DNA of 64,000 nucleotides from Acholeplasmataceae bacterium (GTDB lineage Bacteria; Bacillota_I; Bacilli_A; Acholeplasmatales; Acholeplasmataceae), in NCBI GenBank assembly GCA_963675245.1, contig OY775910.1, positions 672,001-736,000 on the forward strand, read 5' to 3'. Below are positions 25,001 through 28,000 of this stretch, piece by piece. The position numbers are program-made. Within the stretch, counting starts at the first letter, position 1. Every line of letters begins with the position of its first letter.

Positions 25001-28000
25001 GAAAAACGTATGGATGAAATGGGCGTTCCTAAAGCCGATTTAGAGTGGTATTTAGATTTAAGAAGATATGGTGGATGTGTCCATAGTGGATTCGGCATGG
25101 GTTTTGAACGCCTACTCATGTATTTATCAGGCGTTGAAAACATTAGAGATGTTATTCCTTTTCCAAGAACACCAAAGCACGCAGAGTTTTAACATTAAAC
25201 TATATAAAAAAAACGTATAAATTTGCAATAAAAACAGTAAAAAAACCTCTATACATACGAGTTATATAAAATACATGTAAAAATTGAAAATTAGTAGAGC
25301 AAAAGCAATTGTAATTTTTACATTAGTATTATATAATACTATTGTTGAGGTGAAGCAGATGTATCGAATTATCTACACAACACCAACCACATATACAGTT
25401 TCAGAAAGTACTTATTTTTCATTTACAAAAATCTATAAGCACTAAGGGTGTATGCCTAAAGTGCTTTTATTTTTATAGAAATTTAAAGGAGCATAGTACA
25501 TGGAGATACGCATTGAGAATTTAACAAAAATATTTACCGACAAAGCAGGTAACGAAACACATGCAGTTGAAGATTTGACAGTAACCATACCTTCAGGAAA
25601 ACTAATTGGTCTATTAGGACCTAGTGGTTGCGGAAAAACGACAACTCTTTTTATGATTGCTGGCTTACATAAACCAACATCAGGAAAAATATTTTTTGGG
25701 GAAGAGGAAGTGACCAAACTTTCTTCAGACAAAAGAGGAATTGGTCTTGTTTTTCAAAATTATGCGCTTTATCCTCATATGACCGTTAAACAAAACATTA
25801 TGTTTCCATTAGAAAATTTGCGCGTGAGTAGAGAAGAAGCACTAGCTCGTGTTGAAGAAATGGCAGCATTAGTAAGAATTGAAGATCAATTAAATAAAAA
25901 ACCAGCACAGTTATCTGGTGGACAACAACAACGTGTCGCGATTGCTCGTGCATTAGTTAAGAAGCCAAGAGTGTTATTGTTAGATGAACCACTTTCAAAC
26001 TTAGATGCAAGATTGCGTCTTCAAACACGTGAAGAAATTAAAAGAATTCAACGTGAAACAGGTATTACAACGATCTTTGTCACACATGACCAAGAAGAAG
26101 CGATGAGTATTAGTGATGAAATCGTAGTTATGAAATCAGGTTTAAAACAGCAAAAAAATGAACCACAACAGGTGTATTTAAAACCAGTTAATAAATTTGT
26201 TGCTGAATTTTTAGGGAATCCACCTATTAATATCGTTGAAGGTGAAGTAAAAGATAATCAACTTTATATTAACGATATTAAACTAGCAAACAAAAATGCA
26301 AAAGATGGTAATTACGATGTTGGTCTTCGTCCAGAAGACTTTGTTATTAGCAAAGAAGGCATTAAAGCTGTTGATCCAGTTGTTGATACAATCGGTAGAG
26401 ATACCATGATTAGATTTAACGTTGGAGATACCGCTATTCGTGCTTTAGTAAATTCTGATACACTATCAGAAGATAAACATATCGTATTAACGGTCAAAGA
26501 ACAAAAAATACTATTATTTGATAAAGAAAGTGGTGAAACAATCAAATGATAGAAACGATAAAATCATGGATATGGAATTCACGCTCATTCATTAATAAAA
26601 TAAAACAAGCAATCAGCGACAAGCTTAAATTCCGATTTAAAGTTCCGGTTTGGATTAGAGCACTCATTTATTTATCTCCAGCGCTCATACTACTAGGTGT
26701 TTTCACTTTTTATCCAATCCTAAACGCGTTTAGATTGGTTATTTATGAAGGGTATCAACACGTTAGAGACATAGATGGTAATCTTGTTGAAAGCATTACT
26801 GGATATACAGTTTTTGGTAACTTTTTAACTGTATTACGTACAGATAACTTTATCGTACCGTCTAGCCATACCGGTTCCAGTGTTATTTTAAACACATTGG
26901 CAATTGTCTTTATTTCGGTTCCAATTTCAGTGTTATTATCACTATTTATTTCTGCTACTTTAAACTCAGTTGGAAAAATGAAAGGTTTCTTTCAAACCAT
27001 TTTCTTCTTACCATATATTACAAACACTCTTGCCATAGGGTTAGTCTTTGCCTATATGTTTACGAGTGGTAATGCGGGTCTTATCAACCAATTTTTAGGT
27101 ATATTTGGGATAGAACCTGTATCTTGGATTGAAAGAGGTGCTACTTACTGGCACGCAATGGCTGTACTCATCATATTTGGTGTGTGGGATGGTATGGCAT
27201 TTAAAATTATGGTGTTCTTATCTGGTATGCAAGGAATTGATAAACAATATTATCAAGCAGCTGCCATCGATGCAACACCAAGATGGCGCATTTTCCGTCG
27301 AATTACAGTGCCGCTTATATCACCTATGATTTTCTACATTATTGTTACATCGCTAATTGGAGCATTCAAAACATACACATCAGTGGTTGCCATATTTGGT
27401 GATATCGGTCAACCGCCTAGCGCGAATTACACGTTGAAAACGATTGTATTCTATATTTACGATTACATATACAGTGGTGAAAACTTATCACTAGCCGCAG
27501 CAGCATCCATCATATTGTTCGCGATTATTCTCGTACTTACACTTGTTCAAATGCAAGTAGGTAAGAGACGCGTACATTATTGATAGAGGGGTATAGAATA
27601 TGAATAAAGAGCAAGTACGTAAGATTAAATTGTTTGAATTTATCATTCAAAGTATAGATGCAGTATTTATTGTCATGTTTATGGGAGTATTTATTTTCTT
27701 GTTTACAAATTTACAAGTGCCTACAACACCACCTGTAACAGATGACATTTTACTATATACATATCATATCTTTGGAAGAGAAATGAGTGCAGCAAGTTTA
27801 AACACAGTGATTAGTTTAAGTGCCATTGTTTTATTGGTTACAGTGCCACTATTTTTTGTCAATTTAAAGAAAACACTCAACCGTGAATTTTATGAATATA
27901 GTCCTTGGACTTCAGGCACCATATTTACACAAAGTATTATTTCTTTGTTATCAGCAAATGTTTTCAGCTTCGGATTAAGATTATACGTTGCTAGAAGGAT

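Follow-up and report, generated by a model that had tools for sequence, protein, structure and literature searches.

Background

To our knowledge, most attenuators that sense nucleotides through ribosome occlusion have been described in enterobacteria. Nucleotide and amino-acid inputs are combined via short ORFs within one leader in Salmonella mgtCBR (mgtM/mgtP), but there two separate ORFs respond to ATP and Pro and act through alternative stem-loops, unlike the single upstream ORF (uORF) described here.

The closest parallel is the E. coli pyrBI leader (pyrL), which according to passages of PMC4824070 also possesses a short leader ORF, a U run before the terminator and occlusion after pausing. 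The same passages state that an E. coli terminator is repressed when a ribosome stands at a stop codon within ~27 nt of it, and that pyrBI uses pauses to couple transcription and translation under low UTP. The U5 run of pyrL lies 23 nt before the stem. The 44 codons of pyrL run through the terminator, whereas the present uORF comprises ~25 codons and ends at the foot of the stem. Unlike pyrBI, the present leader is Thr-rich, precedes a scavenging operon and comes from a lineage whose terminators lie close to stops. The comparison implies no homology.

Leader thrL, as far as described in excerpts of PMC1183508, is likewise Thr-rich with a bias towards ACC, but the present leader has no antiterminator, precedes no biosynthetic operon and has the opposite predicted sign. 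The NusG-dependent TTNTTT pauses of B. subtilis resemble it in the T tract ahead of a terminator decision and, in some genera, in an upstream hairpin; in the relevant passages of PMC11602163 these pauses serve riboswitch folding or antiterminator choice, whereas neither aptamer nor antiterminator was found here. Within the same organism group, uORFC-13-1 of Acholeplasma combines promoter, RBS, a uORF with a U run and an adjacent terminator; in the text of PMC8632094 that was searched it occurs exclusively before aroF, with the U run read as Phe codons. Identity with uORFC-13-1 was rejected, as the present leader precedes a different operon and its U run occurs in three frames.

Bacillota are classed as runaway transcribers in parts of PMC13323073. 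Stop-proximal terminators are a signature of runaway transcription, and in such organisms ribosomes do not shield a terminator that adjoins a stop (passages of PMC7858274). A conserved leader in which one pause forces coupling, and whose amino-acid input may act with inverted sign, would make a compact exception. No published description of this leader was found in the literature searched, outside which most subscription papers lie; it is not described in the searched text of PMC8632094, whose figures or alignments could hold the motif. The leader is real and apparently undescribed so far.

The leader and its operon

The window, i.e. the whole analysed stretch of 64,000 nt, belongs to an Acholeplasmataceae genome labelled G000; genera are labelled g5, g26 etc. 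and families f1 and f4. Its leader and operon features are listed in Table 1.

Table 1. Positions of the leader parts and operon genes, counted from the first nucleotide of the window
Feature	Position	Strand	Remarks
Sigma-70-type promoter (-35 25309-25314, -10 25332-25337)	25309..25337	+	10/12 consensus matches
uORF Shine-Dalgarno (SD) GAGGTGA	25347..25353	+	7-nt match to the 16S 3' end of G000 itself
uORF, 28 codons + TAA, 7 Thr	25359..25445	+	peptide without purifying selection
Thr-rich stretch, 5 of codons 7-13	25377..25397	+	within uORF
U tract, candidate polymerase pause	25412..25419	+	interrupted by one A; fits TTNTTT
Intrinsic terminator, stem 25437-25466 + U-rich tail	25437..25474	+	z -3.1
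ATPase-gene Shine-Dalgarno	25486..25491	+	
ABC ATPase, UgpC/MalK type	25500..26549	+	profile match below NCBIfam cut-off
ABC permease 1, UgpA-like	26546..27583	+	below NCBIfam cut-off
ABC permease 2, UgpE-like	27600..29024	+	below NCBIfam cut-off
Solute-binding lipoprotein, SBP_bac_8	29048..31030	+	distant UgpB and mycoplasma P68 similarity
Surface protein: Ig repeats, lamin-tail domain, ExeM/NucH nuclease-like stretch	31077..35372	+	
PASTA-LTD-SNase surface nuclease	35485..37146	+	
Two NrnA-like DHH oligoribonuclease/pAp phosphatase genes, downstream	39030..40911	+	

The initial annotation had proposed an unannotated 28-codon uORF with a perfect SD and a stop on an intrinsic terminator, and all three were recovered at the positions it gave. 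The 5' arm of the terminator contains the uORF TAA, and 33 nt separate the stem end from the ATPase start. A simple terminator scan overlooks this hairpin (25437-25466). The Rfam covariance models, including those of riboswitches, T-boxes and the PyrR leader, gave the leader no match at gathering score, only chance-level scores, in agreement with the annotation.

Every NCBIfam match in the operon lies under its cut-off. The best solved relatives of the binding lipoprotein are UgpB proteins (E 1e-12), the nearest of which binds glycerol-3-phosphate. At several orthologous loci ORFs similar in size to the NrnA-like genes follow the SNase gene. As judged from the neighbouring genes, the operon probably digests and imports nucleic acids. 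Similar ABC and nuclease loci are regarded as probable nucleoside or nucleotide importers in passages of PMC8289736 and PMC9740415, where the cargo is inferred as well. These loci, i.e. the SNase and ABC operons of Mycoplasma and the DNA-degradation loci of Izemoplasmatales, share importer, surface nucleases, lamin-tail protein and phosphohydrolases with the present operon, but those passages mention no such leader. According to excerpts of PMC10470597, supplying DNA and RNA to a related wall-less bacterium raised the expression of such a locus; taken alone, this observation does not speak for a switch triggered by starvation.

Many orthologous ATPases measure ~515-554 aa, against 349 in the window, with only the C-terminal part matching well (L191-L197, L200, L259-L271). 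These enzymes may thus contain an insertion; most of their genes retain the leader.

Distribution of the leader

One common rule was applied to 106 orthologous loci from families f1 and f4. Duplicates (L066-L070), off-operon chance matches (L189, L190, L198, L199), a region without ATPase start (L234), a second copy in which the leader was not seen (L237) and L273 were removed before counting; three variant SD cores joined the rule after the data had been seen. Related genomes are not independent, so all leader tallies are descriptive only.

The -10 box, SD and start are present in 86/106 loci, with the -10 box 13-23 nt upstream of the SD, and the SD columns are nearly invariant in the leader alignment (A1). 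A uORF of 20-41 codons occurs in 83 loci and a terminator at -5 kcal/mol or better in 79; the conserved layout claimed earlier for 12 of 13 leaders from two families is thereby extended to a far larger sample. The other two frames are open for at least 20 codons in only 6 and 26 of the 86. In 75/79 leaders with a terminator the uORF stop, translation itself being predicted, lies -17 to +25 nt from the stem start. Most leaders end 33-57 nt before the ATPase, with no promoter evident between terminator and ATPase.

The 20 misses consist of one incomplete locus, five loci of g2, four of g23, two each of g10, g15, g36 and g6, and one each of g14 and g18. On visual inspection, four of these misses (L228-L230, L271) do have a uORF with a variant SD and a hairpin, but they were kept out of the count. 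In L228 and L229 (f4, genus g23) the variant uORF, again judged by eye, is A-rich, has 13 codons with one Thr, ends at the hairpin and lacks a U run. In L231 and L232 (genus g34) a Thr-poor uORF-terminator unit lies farther upstream and a second promoter precedes the ATPase, which makes a bypass possible.

Outside f1 and f4 the leader was not seen in 27/27 more distant orthologues of other families, nor in 42 distant loci scanned (among the matches listed). A strict pattern yields one match per genome in f1/f4, and no other gene in G000 is preceded by such a leader. In metagenomes 31 of 52 matches to a promoter-SD-U7 pattern precede this ATPase. None of the 52 has a short ORF and terminator before another gene; the downstream gene of the sole other short ORF with terminator was not recovered in its locus. 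The leader was found only before this ABC/nuclease operon.

The U run

T6 or longer precedes the stem in 71/79 leaders (frames 38/21/12), and seven unbroken U are present in 53/79. Since 16 loci came from regions picked via a pattern search that included SD and T6, the 54 leaders derived from the ATPase represent the unbiased set for this feature: 39 of them have 7 U and 8 have 6 U, starting in all three frames. The run mostly starts 54-55 nt past the ATG, in any frame, and ends ~15 nt before the stem. Because it is kept regardless of reading frame, its conservation is at the nucleotide level. By contrast, a run of six T within 33 nt upstream of the stem is found in none of the 244 ordinary G000 genes whose terminator lies close to the stop. 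The earlier claim that the last third of every uORF is richer in U holds for 71/83, not for all, and is due to the one U run; upstream and downstream of the run the U content is 29% and 31%, respectively, and neither general U avoidance before the run nor U excess after it was seen in the leaders. Phe sensing was rejected, the TTY counts being flat across frames.

The NusG pause motif TTNTTT, as given in passages of PMC11602163, occurs in 75/79 leaders vs 17/244 control genes, and G000 encodes NusG. The window tract and three others fit TTNTTT without a U6 run, and 4/79 leaders have neither. A small hairpin abuts the U run in genera g5 and g20 (24/27 at -1.5 kcal/mol or better); such a pause hairpin upstream of the run is absent in the window and mostly absent in g26. 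A NusG-type pause, not considered in the initial annotation, explains the U run equally well without UTP sensing.

A UTP-sensing pause is favoured by the seven unbroken U of most leaders and by the logic of salvage: no ATCase/OTCase match was found in G000, which must therefore salvage pyrimidines; upp is present. UTP sensing is disfavoured by the interrupted tracts that fit TTNTTT, the NusG literature, the flat U content and the leaders of relatives with a pyr operon, where a loop that we take to be of the PyrR type stands instead of this leader. UTP as a real input is rated a little short of even odds. The analogy with pyr operons was rejected, as this leader was not found on those of the relatives. 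Three f1 genomes (L304-L306) have a pyr operon with the presumed PyrR-type loop, and a PyrR-like ORF is evident only in L306.

Selection on the uORF and its threonine codons

In 22 disjoint close pairs the uORF changes are distributed over the codon positions as 50/51/59, with 20 synonymous and 91 non-synonymous changes; the start of the ATPase gene gives 16/15/71. The uORF peptide drifts neutrally, without purifying selection, which bears out the earlier statement that it is not conserved. The uORF has exactly 25 codons in 36/86 leaders and ends on 40 TAA, 28 TAG and 18 TGA. Frameshifted variants keep either their length or their stop within the loop. The features kept are thus ORF length, stop position, U run and terminator, and not the peptide.

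Thr accounts for 326/2156 leader residues (15.1%) vs 5.7% in the proteome, and for 3.5% (g34) to 27% (g26; up to 11/24 codons, mixed synonymous codons) by genus. The Thr enrichment reported before is real and frame-specific, but its size is 15.1% and not 20%. AC dinucleotides number 277/73/59 by frame and are highest in frame for 13/16 genera. Among the codon boxes, AC alone shows a clear enrichment (16.4 vs 5.4%); an effect on ANN codons via t6A was rejected, the AT and AG boxes showing no enrichment. Asn is twofold enriched in the uORFs (9.6 vs 5.0%). ACC and ACT occur 65:37 in the leaders, whereas neighbouring ORFs use 63% ACT, a reversal confined to the Thr box; a preference for ACC is likewise found in thrL (PMC1183508, in part).

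Tandem Thr codons, 3-4 in a row, are present in 12/83 leaders, and 6/83 have 0-1 Thr. Thr peaks 9 and 4 codons upstream of the U run. With a ribosome-to-polymerase distance of ~38 nt, these peaks would mark the site where the ribosome meets the paused polymerase; the -4 peak is partly an arm of the small hairpin, which other genera read in another frame. Between close pairs, retention of Thr codons barely exceeds that of the remaining codons (86% vs 77%). G000 has no thrC over the cut-off, possesses tdh-kbl for Thr breakdown and already has a T-box upstream of thrS.

One alternative keeps the same race but treats the U tract as a constitutive NusG-type (TTNTTT) pause and Thr-tRNA as the sole signal, with inverted sense: plentiful Thr would lead to read-through. 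The TTNTTT counts, the hairpins abutting the run in g5 and g20, the high Thr content of g26 with its mixed codons, the ACC:ACT reversal restricted to the Thr box, and the combination of missing thrC and present tdh-kbl agree with it. It is nevertheless unlikely, since the seven unbroken U exceed the need of TTNTTT, Thr retention in close pairs is weak, Thr-poor leaders exist, thrS has its own T-box and no link between Thr and nucleotide uptake is evident.

According to a second alternative the leader responds to growth rate or general translation capacity without any specific ligand, and Thr would be abundant merely because selection favours a frame that lacks structure and stops and contains little G. 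The composition of the uORF body (42% A, 10% G), the depletion of codon boxes starting with G and the neutral peptide would be expected from this, but composition alone predicts neither the threefold AC frame bias of 13/16 genera nor the ACC shift, and we consider this explanation fairly improbable.

Terminator, stop codon and folding

Gene-end terminators of G000 begin within 12 nt of the stop in 231/351 cases, so a stop at a terminator does not by itself exceed the background of this genome. The translation-coupled attenuation proposed initially is still the best reading, but on account of the U run and the neutral peptide, which are the informative features; the argument from the stop at the terminator is weak.

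The same background would suit a leader that is no regulated switch, either a stand-alone small peptide gene or a leaky terminator giving a fixed step-down, as would its absence by rule from 20/106 loci and from all 27 distant orthologues. Such an origin is quite improbable in view of the unconserved peptide, the absence of the U run from ordinary gene ends, the short gap of 33-57 nt with no evident promoter and the restriction of the leader to this operon.

The terminator covaries, with 87% of cells paired and two-sided changes in 7/12 pairs, figures favoured by the fact that the structure was drawn from one row. Its arms are conserved in primary sequence across both families, as would be expected if an RNA-binding protein or a ligand-dependent arrest peptide controlled it; without a conserved peptide, an Rfam match or an alternative fold, this is very improbable.

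Equilibrium folding of 75 leaders predicts an intact terminator in the naked RNA, and placing a model ribosome at codons 5-20 leaves it intact in at least 72/75; that a ribosome at the stop abolishes the hairpin is an assumption built into the folding model. Pairing of the uORF with the 5' arm is no better than in shuffles of these leaders under the same equilibrium folding, i.e. no antiterminator was detected. Translation could therefore open the operon solely by sitting on the stem. A ribosome stalled on Thr codons would accordingly shut the operon off and not open it. No Rho was found over the cut-off in G000.

Threonine sensing had been considered in the initial annotation; its classical form, in which ribosomes stall for lack of Thr and an antiterminator then permits expression, is regarded here as highly improbable. 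The tandem Thr codons, the thrL-like ACC preference (PMC1183508, in part) and a Tyr-rich uORF before aroF in the same genome (see below) point towards it. Yet the terminator stays formed with ribosomes at codons 5-20, no antiterminator pairing was detected by equilibrium folding, and the overlapping stop means that full translation blocks the terminator and does not free it. Thus the in-frame Thr enrichment of a thrL-type leader is found, but its antiterminator and gene context are not, the operon being a sugar/G3P-class ABC importer with nucleases and without genes of Thr synthesis, import or charging.

A probable race between ribosome and polymerase

The leader is best read, with a probability of about 0.45, as an occlusion-type transcription attenuator that would work like the E. 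coli pyrBI leader. As in pyrBI, the ORF reaches the terminator, the U tract is kept as nucleotides and no antiterminator is needed. The operon may, as in pyrBI, serve pyrimidine supply, given its nuclease and NrnA context and putative cargo; the pyr operons of relatives carry another leader.

Parts and spacing are known from the sequence, and from them we infer the functional steps. Ribosomes would load on the strong SD. RNA polymerase, which presumably outruns ribosomes in this lineage, would pause 55 nt into the uORF, where the U6-7 run lies, and for longer when UTP is scarce. A ribosome would reach the paused polymerase at about codon 10, and both would restart. If the ribosome arrived in time at the stop by the hairpin foot, the 5' arm would be covered and the nuclease/importer operon transcribed; if it came late, transcription would end within the leader. 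With Thr codons inside the race window, a shortage of Thr-tRNA would favour termination. Expression of the operon would accordingly call for a shortage of pyrimidine nucleotides together with a sufficient supply of amino acids.

Such a ribosome race as the general mechanism is likely. Both candidate signals, Thr and UTP, appear to have left traces in the leaders, but that both act as inputs is doubtful. Equally doubtful is a two-input AND gate in one 25-codon ORF, in which the U run would report UTP shortage and the Thr codons amino-acid sufficiency. If true, its Thr sign would be opposite to that of every classical amino-acid attenuator, it would impose local coupling where the polymerase otherwise runs ahead, and the DNA/RNA-scavenging operon would open only in cells whose growth is limited by nucleotides but which can still make protein.

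Additional elements around the leader

In genus g5 (e.g. L009, L010) the 3' arm of the terminator could, by eye, re-pair with a downstream A-rich stretch after read-through. A box that we take to be cre-like lies upstream of the leader in 52/86 orthologues (e.g. L004, L021), often just past a second promoter, and is absent in the window; it suggests a possible carbon-catabolite control on top of the attenuator. The LacI-family genes of G000 score below the ccpA cut-off.

In the window (22822-23035 and 25192-25309) an NYN-domain gene and asnS are preceded by a T-box. Since the prediction gave no terminator behind asnS, its transcripts may extend into the leader; many orthologues likewise have asnS upstream.

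Elsewhere in G000 the DAHP synthase gene aroF (C1:394397-395416, minus strand; L338) is preceded by a 15-codon uORF ending in four Tyr, by hairpins and by a terminator. This leader may be the Tyr-reading counterpart of uORFC-13-1, and its Tyr-rich uORF suggests that ribosome-linked attenuation operates in the group.
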